Shown: positions 33,567 through 53,370 of the stretch, piece by piece
Layout of the letters: each line of letters begins with the position of its first letter
Numbering within the stretch: the first letter of the stretch is position 1
NCBI GenBank assembly: GCA_964408705.1
Contig: CAYPAI010000001.1
Span: forward strand, 63,750 to 127,749
From: Candidatus Woesearchaeota archaeon
Lineage (GTDB): Archaea > Nanobdellota > Nanobdellia > SCGC-AAA011-G17 > PNOQ01
DNA: 64,000 bases
Reading direction: 5' to 3'
Translations under genes and position numbers: made by a program
The notes under the pieces: model-generated
The model's database searches: none
What the model saw: only the letters and a program-made list of their open reading frames with translations
Told to the model about the DNA's origin: nothing

Positions 33567-35888
33567 CTAACCACAACAACATCTTATTCCACAATCAAAA
33601 GGTCCATAACAATAATCATCCCCCCAATCATCAAAATCTGTATTACACCCCAGAGGATATTGTACTTCAAATTGGCAAAGATCATAATAATTAGTTGCCT
33701 CATACCAATATGACATATCATGATTACAACTATCTGGCGAGTTTCCTCCGTAATACTTCCATCCTCCGCCTGATTGATCTACGTCTCCCATCATATACCA
33801 CCAGTTTATATAATTACCCCATTGACAGTTGTCTTGGCAATTAAGTCCTTTACTTTGGCAGAACTCCTCACAATTTCCTTCATTTAATTCGTCCTGGTTA
33901 CAATCATGCTCAAAAGTGAACGGAGTTTGTTCCCCATGATGATCATACAATTGTCCTCCTGGATAAGGTGCAGAGCCATCTGGACAATGAGGATAACCGT
34001 CTTCTTGATCACCATTCCAATCACAATCATAAACTTCTGAGTCTTGTGTTCCTTCTGGATAAGTAGAATAACTTACTGGCCATCCTTGATGCTCATGACA
34101 ATTGTTTGGCCAGTTTCCCCAAGTTGAACTCCATCCGCACTCGCTATGGCATACTTCATACCAATTATTCCCAGATAATTCACAACCAGGCCCTCCCCAT
34201 TCGGCATCTCCATTACAAACTCCTGCGCAGTCAAATTCTCCAAACCCTCCACACTCTCCCGTGCAATCTGATTGGGAGTTTCCACCACAAGTCCCTGTAC
34301 AGTCTATTTCTAATCCTCCTCCGCACTGTCCTGAACAGTCTGCCCAAACATCTCCTTCTACTTCACAAACACAACTACCATGCTGGTTAGTATTTACTCC
34401 ATCTCCATTACATACTCCACAATCATCCCTTTCTGAAGATCCTCCACAAACTCCAAAACAATCTTGTTCTGCATTGCCCCCACACTGTCCTGAACAGTCT
34501 GCCCAAACATCTCCTTCTACTTCACAAACACAACTACCATGCTGGTTAGTATTTACTCCATCTCCATTACATACTCCACAATCATCTATTTCGGCTGAAC
34601 CTGCACAAATACCAAAACAATCTTGTTCTGAATTACCCCCACATTGTCCTGCACAATCTACTTCTGTGTCTCCGTCACACACGCCTGCACAATCTTCACA
34701 GCTAGAGTGGCAACTATCAAGATAATATCCACAAAAGCCACATTCATCTAGCACTTTAGTTCCCCCACAAACTCCTGCACAATCTACTTCCTGTGTACAT
34801 TCTCCATCGCAATCATACTGATTGTCTGGATAGTTCTCAGGGTATATGCAACTTGTTGATGTTGTTGCAGTATTTTGATAATTACACCCATCTTCATCAG
34901 TGCATCCTGAATAAGTTGTATGGAAGCAATTACCCCATTCCGTAGGAATTTGTGACCCAGTAGTATCTGAAATAATTCTGGCATTGTTATTGTCAAAACA
35001 AACCTCAGAACCTATCGAACTATACTCAATTTCTAAAATTAATTGTGTTTCTTTATTTATTGTTAGTTCAGACGATCCACACTCTATACAATCGGCAGGT
35101 ATAACTTGACCACTTATTGAAAATGCGAGAACCATAGGATTTCCTGCTTTAGAAGATATTATAAAATCATTCTCCTCAACACTCCCTCCTGACACATCTT
35201 CTAATTCAAGTCCTTCAACATTAAATTGTATTCCTGCGACATTCGTATTGCTAGTCATATAAACCTTTATTTTTTTGTTGATTGTATCTACTTCTAGTAT
35301 TTCAACTTTCGCAGCAGGTTCAGTCCTTAGTGGGTCTTCTTCTGGAAAGTTTGCATCCACATTCGTGCCAGTGTAAAGAACAGGATCTAAAACATCATAC
35401 ACAGACAATGCCTCTGCATCTGCATAGTGGTCACAAATCCAAGTTTCGCCCTGGTGATGACCATACCTTATACAATTTGCCATTTTAATGTACCAAGGGG
35501 TACCTCCTCCTCCACTTTCTTCACAATCACAAGTCTCGCAATTCATACACTCATCTTGGCCATTTACGTTGCAAGAATTACAACAAACACAATTACTTCC
35601 CAGATTTGCACCCACTATCCCTTTAGGTTTTTCAACAAAACAATCTTCACCTTTAAATTCGTGTGGTCCAAATCTTTCCCAACCTTTGCACGAAATTCCT
35701 TTCTTTATTAATTCAAATGAAGAAGGCGCATTACCTTGGATCCTATCTATCTCTAAACTTATACGTTCAACAATTCTTTGGACAGCATTATCTCTGGGGT
35801 CTTGAGATTGCCTAGAAAACTCGGTACATCCTGAAATAAATAAAATACTGATTAATAATAAACTTAAAACTAAATTACCTCTTTTCAT
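33567..35888 (-). CDS. Large secreted/surface Cys-rich repeat protein with cohesin-like domain (putative lipoprotein)
   Basis: 773 aa; signal peptide with lipobox-like ISGC. Dozens of CxGxCGG...DxCGVCNGDG Asp-rich, Ca-binding-like repeats. The central segment resembles a cohesin/Ig-like beta-sandwich (VEILEVDTINKKIKVYMTSNTNVAGIQFNVEGLELEDV). More than 100 Cys in total. Confidence 0.6.
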   Translation of the reverse strand: MKRGNLVLSLLLISILFISGCTEFSRQSQDPRDNAVQRIVERISLEIDRIQGNAPSSFELIKKGISCKGWERFGPHEFKGEDCFVEKPKGIVGANLGSNCVCCNSCNVNGQDECMNCETCDCEESGGGGTPWYIKMANCIRYGHHQGETWICDHYADAEALSVYDVLDPVLYTGTNVDANFPEEDPLRTEPAAKVEILEVDTINKKIKVYMTSNTNVAGIQFNVEGLELEDVSGGSVEENDFIISSKAGNPMVLAFSISGQVIPADCIECGSSELTINKETQLILEIEYSSIGSEVCFDNNNARIISDTTGSQIPTEWGNCFHTTYSGCTDEDGCNYQNTATTSTSCIYPENYPDNQYDCDGECTQEVDCAGVCGGTKVLDECGFCGYYLDSCHSSCEDCAGVCDGDTEVDCAGQCGGNSEQDCFGICAGSAEIDDCGVCNGDGVNTNQHGSCVCEVEGDVWADCSGQCGGNAEQDCFGVCGGSSERDDCGVCNGDGVNTNQHGSCVCEVEGDVWADCSGQCGGGLEIDCTGTCGGNSQSDCTGECGGFGEFDCAGVCNGDAEWGGPGCELSGNNWYEVCHSECGWSSTWGNWPNNCHEHQGWPVSYSTYPEGTQDSEVYDCDWNGDQEDGYPHCPDGSAPYPGGQLYDHHGEQTPFTFEHDCNQDELNEGNCEEFCQSKGLNCQDNCQWGNYINWWYMMGDVDQSGGGWKYYGGNSPDSCNHDMSYWYEATNYYDLCQFEVQYPLGCNTDFDDWGDDYCYGPFDCGIRCCCG
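34300..34700. repeat. Near-identical tandem direct repeat (~157-bp unit, ~2.5 copies) inside the Cys-rich protein gene
   Basis: Two ~110-bp blocks (about 34326-34437 and 34483-34590) are almost identical (ctgtcctgaacagtctgcccaaacatctccttctacttcacaaacacaactaccatgctggttagtatttactccatctccattacatactccacaatcatc). A partial third copy follows. Confidence 0.7.
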
Positions 35889-37283: not shown

Positions 37284-37997
37284 ATGAAGATAGAACTTAC
37301 AAAAAAACCACAAGGAGTTACAATTGTAGAAGGGTTCCCCGGATTTGGACTGGTTGGAACAATCTCTACTGAATTTTTATTAGATCATCTTGATGCAGAA
37401 AAGATAGGATATATTTGGTTTAGTGAAATAAATCCAATGGTTGCAGTACATGATAAAAAGATAATTGATCCCCTTGGGATTTTTTATAATCGGAAAAATA
37501 ATATTGTAATCCTGCATGCATTAACTAATGTTAATGGTCTTGAGTGGAAACTTGCAGATGCAATCACTTTGCTAGCCAAAAAACTTAAGGCAAAAGAAGT
37601 AATAAGTTTGGAAGGAGTAGGTGCAATAGGTAATGTTGAAAAAAAGGGGAGTCCCGGGGCCTACTATTATTCTTCGAAAAATAATAAAAAATGGGGTGCA
37701 GTTGGTATTACCTCACTAGATGAAGGGATTGTAATAGGTGTTACTGCAAGTCTTCTCTTGAAAATGAAATCTACTCCATTATCTTGCATATTTGTTGAAA
37801 CTAATTCAAAACTACCTGACAGTAGGGCTGCAGCAAAGATTATAGAGACATTAGATAAATATCTTAGATTGGGTGTTGATGCTAGTCCTCTATTAAAAAA
37901 GGCACAATTATTTGAAGGAAAAATAAAAAATATTATGCAAAGTTCTCATAATTTTAAAAAAACAAAAGAAAAAAAACAACTTAGTTATATGGGTTAA
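37284..37997 (+). CDS. PAC2-family proteasome assembly chaperone (PbaA/PbaB-like)
   Basis: 237 aa; N-terminal VEGFPGFGLVGTISTEFL matches the PAC2 G-x-PG-x-G-x-VG signature. Confidence 0.55.
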   Translation: MKIELTKKPQGVTIVEGFPGFGLVGTISTEFLLDHLDAEKIGYIWFSEINPMVAVHDKKIIDPLGIFYNRKNNIVILHALTNVNGLEWKLADAITLLAKKLKAKEVISLEGVGAIGNVEKKGSPGAYYYSSKNNKKWGAVGITSLDEGIVIGVTASLLLKMKSTPLSCIFVETNSKLPDSRAAAKIIETLDKYLRLGVDASPLLKKAQLFEGKIKNIMQSSHNFKKTKEKKQLSYMG

Positions 37998-38141
37998 TTG
38001 CATATAAATATTTAAACAATTATTTGAATTGGGCCTATTAAAGGTGATATCATTTCTAAGGAAAAACACTATGGCATCGGGATAGATGAATCTAATCATG
38101 GCAGAACGCCCGAAATATATGTTTCTGCACTATCTAAAAAT

Positions 38142-38645
38142 TTGAATGATATTGTACGTAGATCCAATATCTTAACTAAGAAAAGAAGAAGAAAGATAAA
38201 TCTGGATAACTTGATATCAGATATAGATAATATCAGATTTGTTGTACTTTATCAAAAACACATAAACACCTTCGGTATAAACAGTGTTAAAGTTCCAGTA
38301 GTTACCAAATTAATAAACTCTTACAACAATAAGATAGACATAGAAAAAACAAAAATTATAGTTGATGGGTCTCCCCCTCCTTCAGTAAATGAAGATATTC
38401 ATTTTGTCTTATCTAAAACATATGGAAAAAACCTTTCGAGGTCACAAATACAGTTTATAGATGAAGCAGACAAATACTATAACATTGTAAATGTTGCAGA
38501 TAGTATCGCTTATCAGTTAAATAAAGCATATTCTGATGTAATTGAAGGCAAAGGGGGTCCTTTTGAAGAAAAGAGAGTAAACTTTGATCTGGTTTGTGAT
38601 TCCAAGCCCAGTAGAAAACAAAAATATCTTAGAAAAATATTATAA
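38142..38645 (+). CDS. Candidate divergent RNase HII; the ORF probably extends upstream to about 38028 with a non-ATG start
   Basis: The ORF as given starts at TTG. The in-frame upstream sequence encodes HYGIGIDESNHGRTPEIYVSAL, resembling the RNase HII N-terminal catalytic motif (GIDEAGRGPVIGPLV). Further similarity: TKKRRRKI (cf. DSKKLSPKRRE) and DEADKYYNIVNVADSIAYQLNKA (cf. ADAKYPVVSAASIIAK). The extended length of ~206 aa fits RNase HII. Confidence 0.4.
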   Translation: MNDIVRRSNILTKKRRRKINLDNLISDIDNIRFVVLYQKHINTFGINSVKVPVVTKLINSYNNKIDIEKTKIIVDGSPPPSVNEDIHFVLSKTYGKNLSRSQIQFIDEADKYYNIVNVADSIAYQLNKAYSDVIEGKGGPFEEKRVNFDLVCDSKPSRKQKYLRKIL

Positions 38646-39142: not shown

Positions 39143-39382
39143 ATGAGTTTTAGTTTGATTTTAGGATTTTTAGGACTATTTATTATCTTTATTGCATATG
39201 TACTGAACAATTGGAATAAATTTAAAAAAAACAAGAGATATTTCTATTTACTCAATATTCTTGGTTCTTGTTTTTTAGCATATTACTCTTTCGAAATATC
39301 TAGTATACCTTTTTTAATTTTACAAGTGTTTTGGATTTTAGCTTCATTATACTCTTTATTTTTTGATTCTAGCAAGGTATAA
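39143..39382 (+). CDS. Small two-TM membrane protein
   Basis: 79 aa; two hydrophobic helices; SD-like AAGGGGG upstream. Confidence 0.35.
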   Translation: MSFSLILGFLGLFIIFIAYVLNNWNKFKKNKRYFYLLNILGSCFLAYYSFEISSIPFLILQVFWILASLYSLFFDSSKV

Positions 39383-39411: not shown

Positions 39412-39439
39412 GGTTCGCATAACATATATTATGCGAACT
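39412..39439. other. dif/att-like recombination site candidate (11-6-11 imperfect palindrome)
   Basis: GGTTCGCATAA-CATATA-TTATGCGAACT. The arms are reverse complements (10/11) and resemble the bacterial dif XerC arm (GCGCATAA-TGTATA-TTATG...). It lies 37 bp upstream of the Xer-type recombinase gene and is followed by a T-run. Confidence 0.4.
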
Positions 39440-39476
39440 TTTATATAGTATTTTTATCAAAAATTAACTAAAAGAG

Positions 39477-40316
39477 GTGTATTTGGTGAAAAAATACTTA
39501 GATAAACTTGAAATTGAATTAAAATTGAGGGGTTTTTCAAAAAGAACCCTCAATACATATTTTACCAATGTTAGATTATTTCTTAACCAATTAACTAAAA
39601 ATCCTGAAGAAACCACTGAAGATGATATAAAATTATATTTTGCAAACCTTATTGCCAATAACCTGTTAAGTCCTAGGTCCATTGCAGTAAAGAAAGCATC
39701 CTTAAAATTTTTTTATGAAGAAGTTTTAGGTAAAAAGATAATTAATCTGAAAACACCCAAAATACCTAAATCTATCCCTGTGTTTTTAACAAAGGATGAA
39801 ATTAAGAAATTGTTTATTGCTTCTTCTTCTAAAAAATCTCTTTTGATCATGAAATTACTTTATTCTACAGGGTTACGTGTAAGCGAATGTGTAAATCTAA
39901 AAACATCTGATTTAGAAATTGAAGAAGGAGTGGGGTGGGTTAGAAGAGGTAAGGGTGATAAAGATAGGGCCATATTCTTTCCAAAATCACTAGGCCGTGA
40001 CTTAAATAAGTATATCCAAACTTTATCTGAAACTGAGCAATATTTGTTTCCTGGAGGGGATAAGGGACACTTATCTACTAGAAACATACAAAAAATAATA
40101 AATTTGGCTGCAAAAAAGGCAAAAATCCCTAAAAGAGTGACTGCACATAAACTAAGACATAGTTTTGCTACCCATAATTTAGATAAGGGGGTAGACATAA
40201 GGATTATCCAAGAGTTATTAGGACATTCAGATCTATCTACGACTCAGATATATACTCATGTTTCCAAGGAACAGTTAAAAAAAGTAAAAAATGTACTTGA
40301 TGAGTTAGAATATTAG
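39477..40316 (+). CDS. xerA: Tyrosine recombinase, XerC/XerD/XerA-like (site-specific integrase)
   Basis: 279 aa; GTG start. N-terminal SAM-like core-binding domain; C-terminal catalytic R...HxLRH...Y region (HKLRHSFATHNLDKGVDIRIIQELLGHSDLSTTQIYTHV). Confidence 0.8.
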   Translation: MYLVKKYLDKLEIELKLRGFSKRTLNTYFTNVRLFLNQLTKNPEETTEDDIKLYFANLIANNLLSPRSIAVKKASLKFFYEEVLGKKIINLKTPKIPKSIPVFLTKDEIKKLFIASSSKKSLLIMKLLYSTGLRVSECVNLKTSDLEIEEGVGWVRRGKGDKDRAIFFPKSLGRDLNKYIQTLSETEQYLFPGGDKGHLSTRNIQKIINLAAKKAKIPKRVTAHKLRHSFATHNLDKGVDIRIIQELLGHSDLSTTQIYTHVSKEQLKKVKNVLDELEY

Positions 40317-40924: not shown

Positions 40925-41512
40925 ATGGTTTTTAAATTTTTTAAAACAAAAAGTTCAAAATTAGATAAAAAATTTAAAGAAATTAATAATAGTTTAACCA
41001 GTTCTTTTTTAAAAATAAAGGAAGATATTTTATCAATAAGTACCCATTTAGGAGATCTCCATACTCACAAAGAAAATCATAGTGAGTTAATCAAGGAATT
41101 AGATTCTCGAATTAAAACATTAGAAAATTTTATTGAAGATATACTTTCTAACCAGCCACGTGTCCAAACAACCCACGTGTCCAAACAAACACAAACAAAT
41201 GTCCGTCCAAAACGGATGTCCGTTCCTGTCCAAACAGAAGTTTTAGAAAGTTTAAAAAGACTAACACCCATGGAAAGGTCATTAGTATGGGCACTTTTAA
41301 ACACAGATATAAGGCTTAGTTATAGTGACCTCTCAAGGATACTTGGCAAAGACGAGTCTACAGTGAGAGGACAAGTTAGCAACATAAAAAGGAAAACGGA
41401 TGACCTTGTGTTAGAACAAAGTGAGAACAGCGGACAAAAAAGATTTTATGTTGAAGAAAGAGTAAAAAACAAAATAATGAGAAAATATAAGGTTAAAGGC
41501 AGGAAAAAATAG
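40925..41512 (+). CDS. Coiled-coil plus C-terminal HTH protein (paralog A)
   Basis: 195 aa; N-terminal heptad-like coiled coil, a low-complexity Q/T/P linker, and a C-terminal HTH (LTPMERSLVWALLNTDIRLSYSDLSRILGKDESTVRGQVSNIKRK). Confidence 0.45.
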   Translation: MVFKFFKTKSSKLDKKFKEINNSLTSSFLKIKEDILSISTHLGDLHTHKENHSELIKELDSRIKTLENFIEDILSNQPRVQTTHVSKQTQTNVRPKRMSVPVQTEVLESLKRLTPMERSLVWALLNTDIRLSYSDLSRILGKDESTVRGQVSNIKRKTDDLVLEQSENSGQKRFYVEERVKNKIMRKYKVKGRKK

Positions 41513-41602: not shown

Positions 41603-42190
41603 TTAAGAAAACCTTGTTTGATTGGGATCTTTGTGATAGTAAAGGTTAGTTAATTTTTCTTTAAGATTTAATTCCTTAAAATCTTGGTGAATAGTGAGAG
41701 TTATTGTACGATTATTGAGTTTTTTCTTTAAAAGAGGTAACCCTTTCCTTATTATAGAGCTAATATAACTCCTAATGCACCCCATAGAAAGGTTTAATTT
41801 TGAAGATAAATCATTGTAATTAACATTTCTGCCTAAATCCTCCTCTAATTGATATATTGTCAAAAACACTAAGAACTCTTGATTAGTGAGATTATCTATT
41901 CTTTTTTCTAAAGTTTTCTTTAATGATTGAATGTTTAATGAATGATTATTTGTTGAATGATTATTTGTTGAATGATTGAGTGAATAGACCCCTTCATTTC
42001 CAGTGGAACTTTTACTCTGATCGAGAGGTATTTGAAGAGTAGGAGCCTCGTTCCCACCATATTTACCACTTTGGCTAATTTTCTCTAATATTTTATCCAA
42101 TTTAGCTTCAATACCTTCTACCCTCTCGCTTAATGAAGAAATATCTTCTTTTACCTTTGTGAAAGATTGTCTTACCTTATCTTGAAACAT
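41603..42190 (-). CDS. Coiled-coil plus C-terminal HTH protein (paralog B)
   Basis: 195 aa; same architecture and length as paralog A (VKEDISSLSE vs IKEDILSIST; HTH LTNQEFLVFLTIYQLEEDLGRNVNYNDLSSKLNLSMGCIRSYISSIIRK). Contains HSTNN tandem repeats. Confidence 0.45.
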   Translation of the reverse strand: MFQDKVRQSFTKVKEDISSLSERVEGIEAKLDKILEKISQSGKYGGNEAPTLQIPLDQSKSSTGNEGVYSLNHSTNNHSTNNHSLNIQSLKKTLEKRIDNLTNQEFLVFLTIYQLEEDLGRNVNYNDLSSKLNLSMGCIRSYISSIIRKGLPLLKKKLNNRTITLTIHQDFKELNLKEKLTNLYYHKDPNQTRFS

Positions 42191-46558: not shown

Positions 46559-46559
46559 G

Positions 46560-47022
46560 ATTTAATTTATCTAGTATTTAAATATATTGTTAAGGTACTA
46601 CCCCCTCACCTACTTTTCAAATGGAAATCCTATATTTTTTAGATTTTGATTTTTTTCCCTTGGAAAATGTCTAATCTTTTCTTGATTTTATGTATTTTTT
46701 TAAGGATATATCGTCTATAAAACTTGAATATTTTTTTTATTTATTTTTTTAAAGTATTTCTTAACTAGAAGCCGTAATATACCATTATTTTTAAGAATTG
46801 ATATTTTTGTTTTTAAATTTTAATTTATATGTTTTATTATTATATTATATTTATATTGTAATTTATATTTTTTATACTGTTACTACTTTTTAGTTTCCAA
46901 AAGAAAAGTAGGTGTTTAGTTTGAGGATGTTGTTATTTTTTGTTTCCACAGGAAATATAGGCCTCAGGGTATATTTCATAATATGAAAATTCTTAAATAA
47001 TAATTTTGAGTAAACTTTCAGA
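46560..47022. other. Predicted chromosomal replication origin (oriC) with ORB-like dyads and AT-rich DUE
   Basis: A 460-bp noncoding region directly upstream of orc1/cdc6. Perfect dyads TTTTCC-CTT-GGAAAA (46653-46667) and TTTCC-ACA-GGAAA (46943-46955), matching the archaeal mini-ORB core (TTCCAnnGGAAA). Half-site GTTTCCAAAAGAAAAG at 46893-46908. A ~150-bp stretch of more than 90% A+T lies between them (46735-46890). Confidence 0.5.
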
Positions 47023-48231
47023 ATGGTAAAGGAAGACATAAGTGGTTTTTTTGAAGAATATCTTTCTAAAGAATCTATTTTTAAAAATAAAAAAGTTTTA
47101 CAATTTAGCCATACCCCTGACAACATCCCCCACAGAGAAGAGCAAATAAAAGAGATTGCATCAATTCTTGCACCTTCATTAAGAGGTGAAAAACCTTCCA
47201 ACCTTTTCTTATATGGTAAAACTGGTACAGGTAAGACACTTTCAATGTTTCATGTTATCAAGAATTTGGAAAAAATTGCAAAAACCAAAAAAATAGGTTT
47301 AAAAGTTTTTTATCTGAACTGTAAACTAAAACGAGTTGCAGATACAGAATATAGATTAATTGCTGCACTTGCGAGAGATTTTGGTGAAGATGTTCCAATT
47401 ACAGGATTACCCACTGATGAGATATACAGGATATTTATGGAAAGGATAGATAGAAAAGAGATGAATTTAATTTTAGTTTTGGATGAGATTGATCAACTAG
47501 TCAAAAAAGCAGGAGATGAAATATTATATAACCTTACTAGGATAAACTCCGAATTAAAAAAAACACAAATAACTGTAGTTGGAATATCTAACGATCTGCA
47601 ATTTGCTAATTATTTGGACCCAAGGGTTAAATCTTCCTTAACTGAAGAAGATATCAACTTCCCATCATATAATGCATTACAATTGCAAGACATCCTATCA
47701 GAAAGGGCCAAGTCTGCCTTCAAAAGTAAAGTAGTTGAAGAAGGAGTTATAAGTAAATGTGCAGCTTATGCTGCGAGGGAACATGGGGATGCAAGAAGGG
47801 CATTAGATTTACTAAGAGTTGCAGGAGAGTTGGCTGAAAGAAATAATGAAAGCAAGCTTAAGATAGATTTTATTGATAATGCTGAAGAAAAAATAGAGAG
47901 AGATTTAATATATGATGTCATAAAAACATTACCAAAACAGTCTCAAGCAACACTTCTTGCAATTTTTAAGTTGAACCGAGACTCACAAGATAAGATTTTA
48001 ACAGGAGATGTTTATGAAACTTACAAGTCTTATTGTATTGCTTCAGGTCTAAAAACACTAACTCAAAGAAGGCTATCTGATCTTATTGCAGAGTTAGATT
48101 TATTGGGAATAATTAATGCGAGAGTTGTTAGCAAAGGAAGATATGGAAGGACAAGGGAAATAAAGTTGGCAGTGCCACAAACTAATTTACCTTCATTAAA
48201 TAAGGAGTTAAAAGGATGGTTGGGACTGTAA
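47023..48231 (+). CDS. cdc6: Orc1/Cdc6 replication initiator
   Basis: 402 aa; AAA+ Walker A (LFLYGKTGTGKT), Walker B (LVLDEID) and a C-terminal winged helix. Confidence 0.9.
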   Translation: MVKEDISGFFEEYLSKESIFKNKKVLQFSHTPDNIPHREEQIKEIASILAPSLRGEKPSNLFLYGKTGTGKTLSMFHVIKNLEKIAKTKKIGLKVFYLNCKLKRVADTEYRLIAALARDFGEDVPITGLPTDEIYRIFMERIDRKEMNLILVLDEIDQLVKKAGDEILYNLTRINSELKKTQITVVGISNDLQFANYLDPRVKSSLTEEDINFPSYNALQLQDILSERAKSAFKSKVVEEGVISKCAAYAAREHGDARRALDLLRVAGELAERNNESKLKIDFIDNAEEKIERDLIYDVIKTLPKQSQATLLAIFKLNRDSQDKILTGDVYETYKSYCIASGLKTLTQRRLSDLIAELDLLGIINARVVSKGRYGRTREIKLAVPQTNLPSLNKELKGWLGL

Positions 48232-49853
48232 ATGAAAAAATAACTAACCTCCTGAAGAAAGGATTTTTAGTTGGTCCAGATTTAATTAAGGAGTTAGAGG
48301 ATCCAAACTTAGATACATTAAGTGACATACCTTATGAAGATCGGCCTTCAGTAATAACAAAAGACATCCATGATTATTTTTTAAAAAAACCAAATAAAAT
48401 AAATATCTCTTGGAAGGATTTTGAAAAAGCAAGAGTTAATTTTGAAAAAGGCAAAGATAAGAAAACCTATCCTTCCTTGCTAAAGTTAACAAATTATAAA
48501 GATAATAAGGAAAAGTTAGACAAGCTCTTGAGTGAAGTTAAAAAACCAGTTAAGCCCATTATATCTCTTGAGAAAAATCCTTCTACTGTTCCAATTGTTT
48601 TGAGGAATTATACAGATAAAAAAACAAAGATTAATGTTAATACTTTTGTTGAACATTATAAACTAAGATATAACTTCTTGAGGAAACTGTTACAGGCCAG
48701 GCAAGACCTGAGTGGTGCAGTGTCTATAGATAGATTGAACCATCGGCGTAAAGGAGATAAAGTTTCTACAATTGGGATGGTCTATTCTAAAGAATATACA
48801 AAAAATAAGCACCTCCTCCTTGAAATAGAAGATATTACTGGTAGGGTAAAATGTTTAGTTATGAATTCTAAAAAAGATCTTTTTGAACTTTCTAAAGATA
48901 TTGTGTGTGATGAAGTGATAGGGTTGAAAGGGACAGCAGGAGATGGCCTAATATTTATTGAAAATGTTTATTTTCCAGATGTTCCTGCCGGAGAAATTAT
49001 TAAAAAAGGGCAGAAGGAAGAATATATAGCATTTATTTCAGATATCCAAATAGGTTCCAAAAAATTTCTTAAGAAGAGTTTTATGAGATTTATAGACTGG
49101 ATAAATGGAGAATATGGTTCAAAGGAACAAAAAGAAGAAGCATTAAAAATAAAATACTTGTGTGTAGTTGGAGATGTTGTAGATGGAGTAGGAATATATC
49201 CAGGACAAGAATCAGATTTAGAGATAAAAGATATTTATGATCAATATAAGGAGTGTGCAAATGTTTTTTCAAAGATAAGGAAAGACATACACATAATTAT
49301 ATCTCCAGGGAACCATGATGCCGTCAGATTGGCAGAACCTCAACCTGTTTTTGAAAGAAGCATGTCGGAGGATTTGTGGGAAATGGAAAATGTAACTCTT
49401 GTTACTAATCCGGCAACAGTTAATGTGGGGGCGACGGAAACATTTGAAGGACTTGATGTATTGATGTACCACGGATTTAGTTTTGATTTTTATGTAGATT
49501 ATTTAGATAATATACGGAACAAGGGGGGTTATGACAGCATTTGTGTTTTAATGAAGATGTTGCTACAAAAGAGACACCTAGCACCAACTCACACATCAAA
49601 TCTTTCAGTGATAGATCCTGAAGAAGATTATATGGTAATAGAAGATATACCCGATATTTTTGTTACAGGTCATGTGCACAAGGCAAAAATAGACCAATAT
49701 GGTAAGACTACACTAATTAATAGCAGCTGTTGGCAAGCTAAGACAGACTACGAGGAGAAGTTAGGACATACTCCTGAGCCAGCAAGAGTTGCAATAATTA
49801 ATATGAAAACAAGGGAGACAAAATTTATGAAATTTTTAGTAGAAGATGAATGA
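48216..49853 (+). CDS. dp1: DNA polymerase D small subunit (DP1, 3'-5' exonuclease)
   Basis: 545 aa; OB fold plus calcineurin-like phosphoesterase motifs (GDVVDGVG, GNHDA, GHVH). Confidence 0.85.
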   Translation: MVGTVNEKITNLLKKGFLVGPDLIKELEDPNLDTLSDIPYEDRPSVITKDIHDYFLKKPNKINISWKDFEKARVNFEKGKDKKTYPSLLKLTNYKDNKEKLDKLLSEVKKPVKPIISLEKNPSTVPIVLRNYTDKKTKINVNTFVEHYKLRYNFLRKLLQARQDLSGAVSIDRLNHRRKGDKVSTIGMVYSKEYTKNKHLLLEIEDITGRVKCLVMNSKKDLFELSKDIVCDEVIGLKGTAGDGLIFIENVYFPDVPAGEIIKKGQKEEYIAFISDIQIGSKKFLKKSFMRFIDWINGEYGSKEQKEEALKIKYLCVVGDVVDGVGIYPGQESDLEIKDIYDQYKECANVFSKIRKDIHIIISPGNHDAVRLAEPQPVFERSMSEDLWEMENVTLVTNPATVNVGATETFEGLDVLMYHGFSFDFYVDYLDNIRNKGGYDSICVLMKMLLQKRHLAPTHTSNLSVIDPEEDYMVIEDIPDIFVTGHVHKAKIDQYGKTTLINSSCWQAKTDYEEKLGHTPEPARVAIINMKTRETKFMKFLVEDE

Positions 49854-52800
49854 TTTAAATAAATATGATGAAGGCATAGATAAAAAAGTTAAAAAAGCAT
49901 ATGATCTTGCTAAATCTGCAAAGTTAAAAAGAATAGATCCTTCGGAGCGGATCGAAATACCTTTAGCTAAAAACATGGCAGAGAGGGTTGAAGGTTTGAT
50001 AGGTGTTGCTGCACCTCAAATAGTTGGGAAAGGCCTACCCCAAAGAATAGAACAATTAGAAAAAGAAAATGGGAAGTTGGATTGGAGAGTCGGATTAAAA
50101 ATAGCATACGAAGTTGCTAGTGAAAAATTTTGTAAATTTGAAGATAAAAAAGAAGCAATAGAGGTTGGTATAAGAGTGGGGTTTGCTTATGTTACTGTAG
50201 GAGTTGTAGCAAGCCCTTTAGAAGGTTTTACTGGGATAAAGATTAGAAAGAGAAAGGATGGAAAGGAATATCTTGCATTGTGCTACGCAGGGCCGGTAAG
50301 GAGTGCAGGAGGTACTGCTGCCTCTGTTTCGGTATTAATAGCAGATTATTTAAGAAAAAAAATGGACTATTCTAAGTATGATCCAACTCCTGAAGAGGTG
50401 AAGAGGGCAGTAATAGAGTTAACAGATTATCATGAGAGGATAACAAATTTACAATATTTTCCTAGTCCTGAAGAAATTGAGAACATGGTTTCAAATTTAC
50501 CTGTTCAAATAGATGGGGATCCGACCGAAAAGTTGGAAGTTTCAAACCACAAAGATTTGGATAGGATTGAAACCAATAGGATAAGAGGTGGTTTTTGTTT
50601 AGTGTTGGGGGAGTGCCTTTGCCAAAAGGCAAAGAAAGTAAATAAACAACTAGAAGATTGGGGAGACGAGTTAGGAATGGGAGATTGGGATTTTATGCAT
50701 TCTTTTTGTAAAATTCAAACAAAATTAAAAGCAAAAGAAAAAGGTATACAAGATTCAACTGAAAAAATTTCACCAGACTTTACTTTCATAAAAGATATTG
50801 TTGCAGGAAGGCCCGTTTTAACATACCCTTTGAGAGAAGGTGGATTTAGATTAAGATATGGGCGTTCGAGAACTACTGGGCTTAGCTCAGTGGCTATACA
50901 CCCTTTAACTATGAAGATCCTTAATAATTACATTGCAATAGGTACTCAACTCAAAATGGAGAGGCCAGGAAAAGGAACTGCCTTAAGTTCTTGTGATTCA
51001 ATAGAAGGCCCAATTGTAAGATTAGACAACGGGGAAGTTATTTTTTTAAAAGAAGAAGACTATGATAAATTTAAAAATAACATAGATAAGATCTTGTTTT
51101 TAGGAGACATATTAATTCCCTATGGAGATTTTTTGAATAGAGCACATGTGTTAGTCCCTCCAGGGTATTGTGAAGAATGGTGGATAAAAGAAATAAAAAA
51201 TAAAAAAAGATCCCCTCAAGAGTTAGAAGTTGAAACAAAGATTAACCTTTCATTGTTGAAACAACTATACAATGACCCTATAAAAACAAATATTTCTGTA
51301 AAAGATTCTTTTACTATTTCTGAAAAGTTGGGAGTCCCGTTTCACCCAAAATATACATTCCATTGGAAAGATATCTCTGTAAAAGAATTATTAATCCTTT
51401 TGAGCAAAGTTATAAAATCTACTATAAAACGAGGAGAGGAGTTTAAATTAATTTTTCCACTACATGAAGAAGAATTAGAAAAACATATTTCTCTTAAAAA
51501 GATTCTTGAAAAAGTAGGCGTTCCTCATAAATTAGTTTCTAATGAATATTTAATAATTGAAAAAGAATGGGCAGAGTCTTTTTTGGTAAATCTTGGATTG
51601 TACAAAGAGGGGGCTGATTTAAAAAAAACCATAGAAGAAATAGATACTTCTAATGAAGTTTTACAAATAATAAATAATCTTTCTGAAATAAAAATAAGGG
51701 ATAAATCTGGAGTTTTCGTTGGTGCAAGAATGGGTAGGCCTGAAAAGGCAAAAATACGTAAATTAAAAGGTAGCCCCCACGTATTGTTTCCAGTAGGTAA
51801 TGAAGGGGGTAGATTAAGATGTTTCCAATCTGCATTGGAGAAAGGAAAAATTAATGCAGAGTTTCCCCTCAAACATTGTGAAAAGTGCGATATAGAGACA
51901 GTATATCCTTCTTGTCAAACTTGTAAAAATAAAACTACTCCAAGATATTATTGTAGACTTTGTAAAAAGGTTTTAAGCGAAGAGGTTTGTCCAAACCATG
52001 GAAAAGGGACAAACTATAATTTTAGGAGTATAAATATTTCTGAGTATTATTCTAGTTCTTTAAAAAAGCTAGGAATAAACAATTCTCCCGATTTAGTAAA
52101 GGGTGTGAGGGGAATGTCTAGTGATAGCAAAGATGTTGAAAATTTGTCTAAAGGATTACTTAGGGCAATACACAATATTCATGTAAACAAAGATGGTACA
52201 GTTAGGTATGATATGACGGAATTAGCATTAACACACTTTAAACCTAAGGAAGTTGGAACTAGTGTAGAAAAATTAATTAAACTGGGATATACTAAAGATG
52301 TTTTAGGAAAAGAATTAACCGACGAAGACCAAATTTTACAAATTTATCCTCAAGATGTTATTTTGCCTTCATGCGAAGAATCAAATGAAGAAGGTTGCGA
52401 TTCAATAATGTATAGAGTTTCTAAGTTTGTAGATGATTTATTGAAACATGTTTATGGGTCAAGTCCATTCTATGAGTTAAAATCTAAATCAGATCTAGTT
52501 GGTCACCTTGTTATAAGTCTTGCACCTCACACTTCTGCAGGAGTGGTAGGAAGGATAATAGGTTTTTCAAAAACCCAAGGAGGTTATGCTAGTCCGATTT
52601 GGCATTGTGCTCAAAGAAGAGATTGCGATGGAGATGAGTGCGGGATCATGTTGTTAATGGATGGTTTATTAAATTTTTCAAGGAAGTATTTACCAGGTCA
52701 CAGGGGTGCAACTCAAGATGCCCCGCTTGTGCTAACTTCAAAAGTTATCTTAACTGAAGTTGATGATATGGTTTTTGATATGGATACTGAATGGGAGTAT

Positions 52801-53370
52801 CCTCTCGAATTTTATGAAGCATGTGAAGAGTATAAGATGCCATGGGACATTAAAATAAAAAAAATAGGTGACAATCTTGAAAATTTTGGAGAATTTATAA
52901 TTGGATATACTCACGAAACAGATAACTTAAACGATGGAGTAAGATATAGTGCCTATAAGCAAATTCCAACGATGCAAGAGAAAGTTCTTGGCCAGATGGA
53001 TCTTGCCGAAAAAATAAGGGCAGTTGATGAAGATGATGTTGCAAGACTAGTAATAGACCGGCATTTCATCAGAGACATAAAAGGTAATCTTAGGAAGTTT
53101 AGTATGCAGGAGTTTAGATGTGTGGCTTGTAATACAAAATATAGGAGGACACCTCTTAATGGAAAGTGCACTAATTGCAAGGGCAAACTTATTTTTACTA
53201 TTTCAGAAGGTAGTGTTACAAAATATTTGATGCCTTCATTACAACTTGCAGAAAAATATAATCTTCCAGAATATACTTCCCAAACTTTAGACTTACTTAA
53301 AAGAAGAATAGAGAGTTTTTTTGGAAAAGAAGAAGACAGGCAAGAAGGGTTAAGTAGGTGGGTTCTTTGA
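49846..53370 (+). CDS. dp2: DNA polymerase D large subunit (DP2)
   Basis: 1174 aa; conserved DP2 segments and Cys clusters (CEKCDIETVYPSCQTC, CRLCKK...CPNHG, CVACNTK...CTNCKG). No intein. Confidence 0.85.
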   Translation: MNDLNKYDEGIDKKVKKAYDLAKSAKLKRIDPSERIEIPLAKNMAERVEGLIGVAAPQIVGKGLPQRIEQLEKENGKLDWRVGLKIAYEVASEKFCKFEDKKEAIEVGIRVGFAYVTVGVVASPLEGFTGIKIRKRKDGKEYLALCYAGPVRSAGGTAASVSVLIADYLRKKMDYSKYDPTPEEVKRAVIELTDYHERITNLQYFPSPEEIENMVSNLPVQIDGDPTEKLEVSNHKDLDRIETNRIRGGFCLVLGECLCQKAKKVNKQLEDWGDELGMGDWDFMHSFCKIQTKLKAKEKGIQDSTEKISPDFTFIKDIVAGRPVLTYPLREGGFRLRYGRSRTTGLSSVAIHPLTMKILNNYIAIGTQLKMERPGKGTALSSCDSIEGPIVRLDNGEVIFLKEEDYDKFKNNIDKILFLGDILIPYGDFLNRAHVLVPPGYCEEWWIKEIKNKKRSPQELEVETKINLSLLKQLYNDPIKTNISVKDSFTISEKLGVPFHPKYTFHWKDISVKELLILLSKVIKSTIKRGEEFKLIFPLHEEELEKHISLKKILEKVGVPHKLVSNEYLIIEKEWAESFLVNLGLYKEGADLKKTIEEIDTSNEVLQIINNLSEIKIRDKSGVFVGARMGRPEKAKIRKLKGSPHVLFPVGNEGGRLRCFQSALEKGKINAEFPLKHCEKCDIETVYPSCQTCKNKTTPRYYCRLCKKVLSEEVCPNHGKGTNYNFRSINISEYYSSSLKKLGINNSPDLVKGVRGMSSDSKDVENLSKGLLRAIHNIHVNKDGTVRYDMTELALTHFKPKEVGTSVEKLIKLGYTKDVLGKELTDEDQILQIYPQDVILPSCEESNEEGCDSIMYRVSKFVDDLLKHVYGSSPFYELKSKSDLVGHLVISLAPHTSAGVVGRIIGFSKTQGGYASPIWHCAQRRDCDGDECGIMLLMDGLLNFSRKYLPGHRGATQDAPLVLTSKVILTEVDDMVFDMDTEWEYPLEFYEACEEYKMPWDIKIKKIGDNLENFGEFIIGYTHETDNLNDGVRYSAYKQIPTMQEKVLGQMDLAEKIRAVDEDDVARLVIDRHFIRDIKGNLRKFSMQEFRCVACNTKYRRTPLNGKCTNCKGKLIFTISEGSVTKYLMPSLQLAEKYNLPEYTSQTLDLLKRRIESFFGKEEDRQEGLSRWVL

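Follow-up and report, generated by a model that had tools for sequence, protein, structure and literature searches.

A 28-bp inverted repeat immediately upstream of an archaeal recombinase gene (positions 39412-39439 of the 64-kb stretch of DNA analysed here, hereafter the window) probably serves the Xer system of this archaeon as its dif site, forming a xerA/dif module with the adjacent gene. We put the probability of this reading at about 0.75. It was one of two offered in a preliminary description of the DNA, and it gained support from the assignment of the recombinase to the XerA orthologues, from the fixed position of the site in relatives and from its linkage to xerA across phyla. The features of the locus are listed in Table 1.

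Table 1. Coordinates of the probable dif site, of xerA and its predicted expression signals, and of the predicted origin region in the window
Feature	Position	Strand	Remarks
Left arm of the probable dif, GGTTCGCATAA	39412-39422		Predicted XerA half-site, xerA-distal; 16.4 bits
Central spacer, CATATA	39423-39428	+	Strand cleavage and exchange predicted at its edges
Right arm of the probable dif, TTATGCGAACT	39429-39439		17.6 bits, the maximum possible; conserved in all relatives
Predicted xerA TATA box, TTTATATA	39440-39447	+	Abuts the right arm (end 39439)
Shine-Dalgarno-like GAGGTG	39474-39479	+	6 nt before the start codon; GAGG or GGGG in relatives
xerA	39486-40316	+	276-aa tyrosine recombinase
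Predicted oriC	46607-46955		Four inverted mini-ORBs (TTCCANNNGAAA) around an AT-rich unwinding stretch; directly upstream of cdc6
cdc6/orc1	47023-48231	+	Pfam Cdc6_C 5e-28, Cdc6_lid 1e-23
PolD DP1	48216-49853		DNA_pol_E_B; after cdc6
PolD DP2	49846-53370		Orthologues annotated PolC_DP2; after DP1

The site reads GGTTCGCATAA-CATATA-TTATGCGAACT, that is, two 11-bp arms on either side of a 6-bp, A/T-rich spacer. When reverse-complemented, the right arm reads AGTTCGCATAA, which gives pairing with the left arm at 10 of 11 positions, as the preliminary description had it. Palindromy itself was rejected as evidence for the 28-mer because its frequency in the window is at chance level: three 11-6-11 palindromes with at least 10/11 pairing were found against 2.3 expected in this DNA of 30% G+C, and one with at least four G/C per arm against 0.30 expected. 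The particular sequence of the arms is far rarer. With up to three mismatches allowed, TTCGCATAA-N6-TTATGCGAA matched the window at 39412-39439 only (0.03 matches expected), so that a search for further copies, which had been proposed earlier, came back empty for the 64 kb. When compared with the E. coli dif, in the sequence that we take as reference, 22 of the 28 positions were identical, the best match in the window and one that none of 100 simulated windows reached; the resemblance of the left arm to the E. coli XerC half, remarked on before, amounts to 10 of 11 positions. The 28-mer also has the format of archaeal dif sites, with two imperfect 11-bp inverted repeats, a 6-bp spacer and the motif TAA-N6-TTA; the 28-bp format is described in PMC8371274, and TAA-N6-TTA is the most conserved feature of archaeal dif sites (PMC11840125).

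An arm matrix was built from 20 related sites including the window's own. The 28-mer scored 34.0 bits with this matrix and the next best position in the window 5.7, the scores of the seeds being partly circular because these were picked by their likeness to the window's site; the restriction of distant sites to upstream positions and the comparison with control windows, both described below, are independent of this circularity. No second full or half copy was present on either side, over 39 kb leftwards and 25 kb rightwards of the site, and just as the window holds one copy, so does the 20-kb locus of each of six relatives. Among relatives the left arm is less conserved than the right, and the spacer of all promoter-adjacent sites follows the polar pattern NATAYA when read towards xerA. 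Cleavage at the spacer edges is predicted by extension from work on P. abyssi XerA, as reviewed in PMC8371274.

Judged by its sequence, the gene downstream of the 28-mer is a genuine archaeal xerA. Its product matched the Pfam families Phage_integrase (7e-43) and SAM_4, an N-terminal SAM-like domain, and passed the NCBIfam equivalog model for archaeal XerA (NF040815, recomb_XerA_Arch) with 260.7 bits against a cutoff of 220. It stayed below the cutoffs of the models for integron integrase (TIGR02249, 208/265), XerC (210/335), XerD (203/330) and XerS (97/267). The closest relatives in the PDB were the XerA proteins of P. abyssi (4a8e, 2e-48) and T. acidophilum (5hxy), and the catalytic columns R131, K156/K159, H221, R224, H247 and Y256 were invariant in an alignment of 23 homologues. 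No other tyrosine recombinase is encoded in the 64 kb. The window belongs to a DPANN archaeon of Woesearchaeota-like type. The nearest named relatives of the recombinase come from Woesearchaeota, Nanoarchaeota and Aenigmatarchaeota, and XerA is conserved at 55-60% across DPANN phyla, in the manner of a core gene. The site had been described as lying 37 bp upstream of the recombinase gene, which holds if translation is counted from the earliest GTG in frame (39477). The GTG at 39486, 46 bp past the end of the site, is the more likely start, because GAGGTG is well spaced before it and because the resulting length of 276 aa is that of all close database orthologues.

Pfam searches identified seryl-tRNA synthetase, a PAC2 proteasome-assembly protein, arginyl-tRNA synthetase, cdc6/orc1 and both PolD subunits as housekeeping neighbours, and an Rfam scan of the window returned three tRNAs only. 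Several further genes in the surroundings were noted. Two ORFs of about 195 aa each (40925-41512, plus strand, and 41603-42190, minus strand) had no significant Pfam family; by inspection, coiled-coil and winged-helix elements are apparent in them, and homologues of each were found by tblastn near xerA in many distant Woesearchaeota loci. A 167-aa ORF at 38025-38645 (plus strand), likewise without a Pfam family, has an in-frame upstream extension with a conserved GIGIDESNHG and no ATG, GTG or TTG in it; either a non-canonical start is used or the N-terminus has been lost. In one locus (L002) a homologue of this ORF sits between the dif-like site and xerA. Beside tRNA-Lys, the minus strand at 33567-35888 encodes a 773-aa Cys/Gly/Asp-rich protein with DCxGxCGG-type repeats, an apparent signal peptide (by inspection) and no Pfam match; this gene accounts for a local rise of G+C to 0.39, is absent from L136 and is differently split in L138.

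The site keeps its place relative to xerA in close relatives. Each of seven related loci (L136, L138, L140, L142, L143, L144 and L001; XerA 89-61% identical) has one site, which ends at -47 or -48 from the xerA start and is followed by an invariant TTTATATA, and the DNA 5' of the site is unalignable among them. The gene order SerRS, PAC2, xerA, ArgRS (cdc6-PolD) is kept in the related loci. Relative to the flanking PAC2 and ArgRS genes, the dif-xerA unit has one orientation in the window, L136 and L138 and the opposite one in the rest of the clade (L140-L144). The spacing is preserved despite this inversion, and the site and xerA therefore stay together as a unit through local rearrangement. 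Inversion of the module by XerA itself was considered and rejected, as no hybrid-site remnants were detected between the xerA stop codon and the next gene. The search gave only a weak, overlapping and outward-facing pair of half-sites at the 3' end of the PAC2 gene (37933-37951; TTATGCAAAGT and AGTTCTCATAA, 8.7 and 10.5 bits), which may be due to chance.

Linkage of the motif to xerA extends to distant genomes. Loci with XerA homologues (37-61% identical) from 80 species-level genomes were scanned for sites within 3 kb, and 32 of these loci had a site above the 99% level of a shuffled-locus null. All 32 sites lay upstream of xerA (p = 6e-11), 11 of them within 120 bp of the gene, and none was inside or downstream of it, though slightly more downstream sequence was available. 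The consensus arm was AGTTCGYATAA. Arms of the same site resembled each other more closely (8.47/11) than arms of different sites (7.83/11), a value reached in none of 5000 shuffles; such co-variation is expected when a single protein reads both arms.

Some of these distant loci had features of their own. In five loci from Methanoperedens or other Methanosarcinales, XerA was 49-52% identical, among the closest to DPANN XerA, and a site or half-site was followed by TTTATATA at about -58, which hints at transfer of the xerA/site module between DPANN and these lineages. DPANN-type xerA genes (39-49% identical) were also found on four contigs binned as Planctomycetia, Bdellovibrionales, Chitinivibrionales and Gammaproteobacteria. 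Some of the four have a dif-like site, and mis-binning of archaeal DNA is the probable explanation for all of them. Finally, a conserved protein that combines a double zinc ribbon with an HNH nuclease motif, about 155-172 aa long, is encoded in 13 of the 80 loci; its Pfam match to the RecA-dependent nuclease Ref is weak and sub-threshold. Its gene, absent from the window, starts 14-75 bp downstream of a dif-like site in eight of the 13, sometimes in the order dif-HNH-xerA. A selfish endonuclease gene may have inserted at dif in these loci, or the protein may work together with the Xer system.

A wider search recovered the core GTTCGYATAA-N6-TTATRCGAAC from more than 120 metagenome contigs (21-66% G+C, many from the human gut) and 55 viral contigs, most of them with no XerA gene nearby. 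The presence of this core on contigs of very different G+C indicates that it is generic to Xer/Cre-type recombinases and not diagnostic alone, and its use by itself as a marker of DPANN dif was dropped, since it is widespread in bacteria too. The 55 viral matches were of varied G+C and lox-like, with recombinases that were 25-38% identical or absent; no DPANN element using the 28-mer dif was evident among them. One site, AGTTCGTATAA-TTGTAG-TTATACGAACC, recurred on seven viral and two metagenome contigs, identical but for one spacer base in L104 (TCGTAG), and no recombinase was detected near it in that contig family. On L081 the site stands at the 5' end of the gene for a 223-aa phage recombinase. 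Many metagenome contigs stop a few to about 100 bases from such a palindrome, which suggests assembly-graph breaks arising from one-sided strain variation or from the palindrome itself.

The octamer adjoining the right arm is the predicted TATA box of xerA by its agreement with the consensus. It is invariant in eight of eight aligned relatives, the DNA on the other side of the site being unconserved, and TATA-like octamers precede other genes of the window at -27 to -46. The outer CGAAC of the right arm would then occupy the BRE position of the xerA promoter. With the arm abutting the TATA box in this way, XerA bound to dif should compete with TFB/TBP, and xerA would be repressed by its own product. 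We consider it possible, at somewhat below even odds, that dif doubles as the operator for such autorepression. Half-sites of at least 13 bits were present in 42% of 99 windows upstream of xerA and in 1.2% of 1760 control windows taken from these loci, an enrichment at xerA promoters that suggests autoregulation.

When 96 non-redundant loci with xerA homologues were classified, seven of them pre-selected for carrying the site, a full site lay within 140 bp of the xerA start in 20 and only farther away in 14. Another 19 had a lone half-site at the xerA promoter, accompanied in eight cases by an intact site at another place in the locus, and in 43 neither a site nor a half-site was detectable near xerA. 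In three Aenigmatarchaeota loci (L265, L266 and L006) the promoter copy is a decayed dif, its right arm (TTATACGAACT) perfect and its left arm degenerate; two of these loci (L265 and L266) have an intact site 3.5-6 kb downstream of xerA, and this suggests that dif was relocated in Aenigmatarchaeota while one arm was kept at the promoter. More tentatively still, an XerA-binding arm beside the xerA TATA box may serve as an autoregulatory operator among DPANN (and in Methanoperedens), which in the clade of the window would be the chromosomal dif itself. The promoter overlap, if functional, would make a recombination site the operator of its own recombinase, and one 28-bp element would then be both dimer-resolution site and switch of XerA dosage. 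In the searchable literature we found no description of Xer autoregulation, nor of lone half-sites at xerA promoters or of proximity to a single predicted oriC.

The region at 46559-47022, between a small membrane-protein gene and cdc6, has the make-up of a well-formed archaeal oriC, and origin activity is predicted from its sequence. Its mini-ORBs face inwards (46615-46626 and 46654-46665 on the minus strand, 46895-46906 and 46944-46955 on the plus strand); the pattern had eight matches in the window against 1.75 expected, four of them clustered here. The probable dif is about 7.2 kb from this predicted origin, at variance with the terminus placement of bacterial dif some 180 degrees from oriC. 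A cdc6 gene lies within 7-8.5 kb in L136, L138, L140 and L144 as well. The 3-kb flanks of the 80 distant loci, too short for this comparison, gave no cdc6 match. None was found within 10 kb of xerA in two Aenigmatarchaeota loci, whose xerA neighbourhood differs, and proximity to the origin thus appears specific to the clade of the window. The analysis of GC skew suggested in the preliminary description gave a minimum at 45-47 kb, which fits the origin; the skew follows gene strand, however, and 64 kb of it places no terminus.

Two other statements made earlier about this arrangement fared differently. Location of xerA by the origin had been called known in Thermococcales, but Cortez et al. (2010) reported that xerA varies greatly in position and that dif is not adjacent to it (PMC2958812). 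That a dif near oriC would be unusual is correct by the bacterial rule and carries less weight for archaea, given that in Sulfolobus dif is situated outside the zones where forks fuse and Xer is active without FtsK (PMC3020120). If confirmed in a closed genome, an origin-proximal dif would strengthen the view derived from Sulfolobus that archaeal dimer resolution needs neither a terminus location nor FtsK, and a self-regulating cassette about 7 kb from the origin would be an extreme uncoupling of dimer resolution from replication termination.

How the module would work can be sketched by analogy with characterised archaeal XerA. One XerA monomer would bind each 11-bp arm, the two dif copies on a chromosome dimer would synapse, the tyrosines would cut at the edges of the 6-bp spacer, and two sequential strand exchanges would convert the dimer to monomers without FtsK. 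The P. abyssi and S. solfataricus enzymes recombine dif in vitro in the absence of FtsK (PMC2958812, PMC3020120). In T. acidophilum the site dif1 binds XerA and does not recombine (PMC11840125), so the look of a binding site is no proof of recombination.

The most serious rival to the dif reading is that the 28-mer is an XerA-binding operator only, or a retired dif, with the recombining dif elsewhere in the genome. The T. acidophilum dif1, the 19 loci with lone promoter half-sites (eight with an intact dif elsewhere) and the atypical position near the origin all speak in its favour. We nevertheless regard it as unlikely: with 16.4 and 17.6 bits the two arms come close to or reach the maximum of 17.6, the whole clade keeps the polar spacer NATAYA, and no other candidate site is present in the 64 kb. 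The retention of a complete site here, where one arm was lost in genomes from which dif moved away, argues for use in recombination. The RNA hairpin that the repeat could form raises the question of whether the repeat does no more than terminate transcription of the 79-aa gene upstream, or bind a transcription factor unrelated to Xer. It lies 30 bp past the stop codon of ORF 39143-39382, and as RNA the region gives a 13-bp stem with UUUU after it (-22.4 kcal/mol, z = -4.9). Archaeal termination generally depends on oligo-T and not on hairpins. A terminator scan, moreover, found none, the arms match the Xer consensus, and what is conserved across phyla is the sequence and not just the pairing. 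Since that conservation follows xerA whatever gene lies 5', including upstream genes on the opposite strand in L140, the terminator-only role that had been named as grounds for giving up the dif reading is highly improbable.

The other reading offered in the preliminary description made the site an attP or attL core, and it fits the data poorly. On this account an integrated element would encode the recombinase and have the 28-mer as its att core (attL/attR or attP); alternatively, the core would belong to an IMEX-type element exploiting the XerA of its host. The genes next to the site on its upstream side do vary among relatives (a 79-aa membrane protein, a 68-aa ORF, a LiaF-TM protein, an acetyltransferase, an epimerase), many metagenome contigs end at such palindromes and similar cores occur on viral contigs. 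Yet the window contains no second full or half site, no mobile-element gene by Pfam and no tyrosine recombinase besides this one; the flanks are PAC2, SerRS, ArgRS, cdc6 and PolD in an order conserved in seven genomes; the recombinase is an XerA equivalog with core-gene-like conservation (55-60% across DPANN phyla); and the viral matches bear recombinases only 25-38% identical, or none. Taken together, we see little chance of an att core. The variable small upstream genes might also be read as cassettes, with the 28-mer as an integron-type attI served by an archaeal integron integrase. This idea draws on the NCBI family name 'site-specific tyrosine recombinase/integron integrase' and on the report of archaeal integrons in Nanoarchaeota and others (PMC9668308), besides the variable gene content next to the site. 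It is made very improbable by the score with TIGR02249 (208 against 265, in two broken stretches), by the length of 276 aa, which is consistent with no IntI-specific extra domain, and by the symmetric 11-6-11 dif type of the site; a palindrome-family search of 35.9-40.9 kb found no array of related attC-like palindromes, and the upstream genes point towards the recombinase gene, not away from it.

A chromosomal dif beside xerA would thus be the best account of the 28-mer. Experiments on Xer/dif have covered few archaea and no DPANN lineage, for which this locus offers a cheap test substrate consisting of a 28-mer and a 276-aa enzyme. The consensus AGTTCGYATAA-N6-TTATRCGAACT would in addition locate dif in many uncultured small-genome archaea.

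The window shares with the archaeal XerA/dif systems of P. abyssi, T. kodakarensis, T. acidophilum and S. solfataricus a single XerA-family recombinase, an intergenic 28-bp site of 11-6-11 format, the inner ATAA/TTAT and, as would be expected by analogy, independence of FtsK. The validated dif of P. abyssi is ATTGGATATAA-TCGGCC-TTATATCTAAA (PMC2958812). It is identical to the 28-mer at only 10-12 of 28 positions, the likeness being confined to the inner ATAA/TTAT. The dif sites of Thermococcales stand apart from xerA, 120-142 degrees away from oriC, whereas the site in the window abuts the xerA promoter about 7 kb from oriC; bacteria, Thermococcales and Methanosphaera all show the opposite of so short a distance between dif and oriC. 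Closer parallels exist elsewhere. In Sulfolobus dif is close to xerA, as in the window, and well away from the fork-fusion zones, and in Haloferax and Halobacterium a putative dif lies upstream of the xerA operon. As has been reviewed, some archaea harbour an individual xerA/dif module, and with dif by xerA already known in Sulfolobus and putatively in haloarchaea, the arrangement itself is not new. Several DPANN loci, in which dif is followed by one gene and then by xerA, resemble the Sulfolobus and haloarchaeal modules, which belong to non-DPANN lineages and differ from the window in its exact, conserved -47/-48 spacing by the TATA box.

Outside the archaea, the XerS/difSL system of streptococci and lactococci likewise combines a single recombinase gene with an immediately adjacent site in one module. 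However, difSL is 31 bp long with an 11-bp centre, where the spacer in the window is 6 bp, it is FtsK-dependent and located at the terminus, and XerS is a family distant from the window's XerA (97 bits against a cutoff of 267). Similarity to E. coli XerCD/dif is closer at the level of the site, which has the same 11-6-11 format in addition to the 22/28 identity and the XerC-like left arm. That system has two paralogous recombinases, asymmetric arms, activation by FtsK and a terminus location, in contrast to the single recombinase and the near-symmetric, co-varying arms found here. Plasmid and phage modules of the Cre/loxP type also place a recombinase gene beside its site, and the matches on viral contigs look to be of this class. 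The arm core TTCGTATA is presumably common to loxP and the 28-mer; loxP differs in its 13-bp arms, its 8-bp spacer and the different family of Cre, and the 28-mer stands in a context of chromosomal housekeeping genes.
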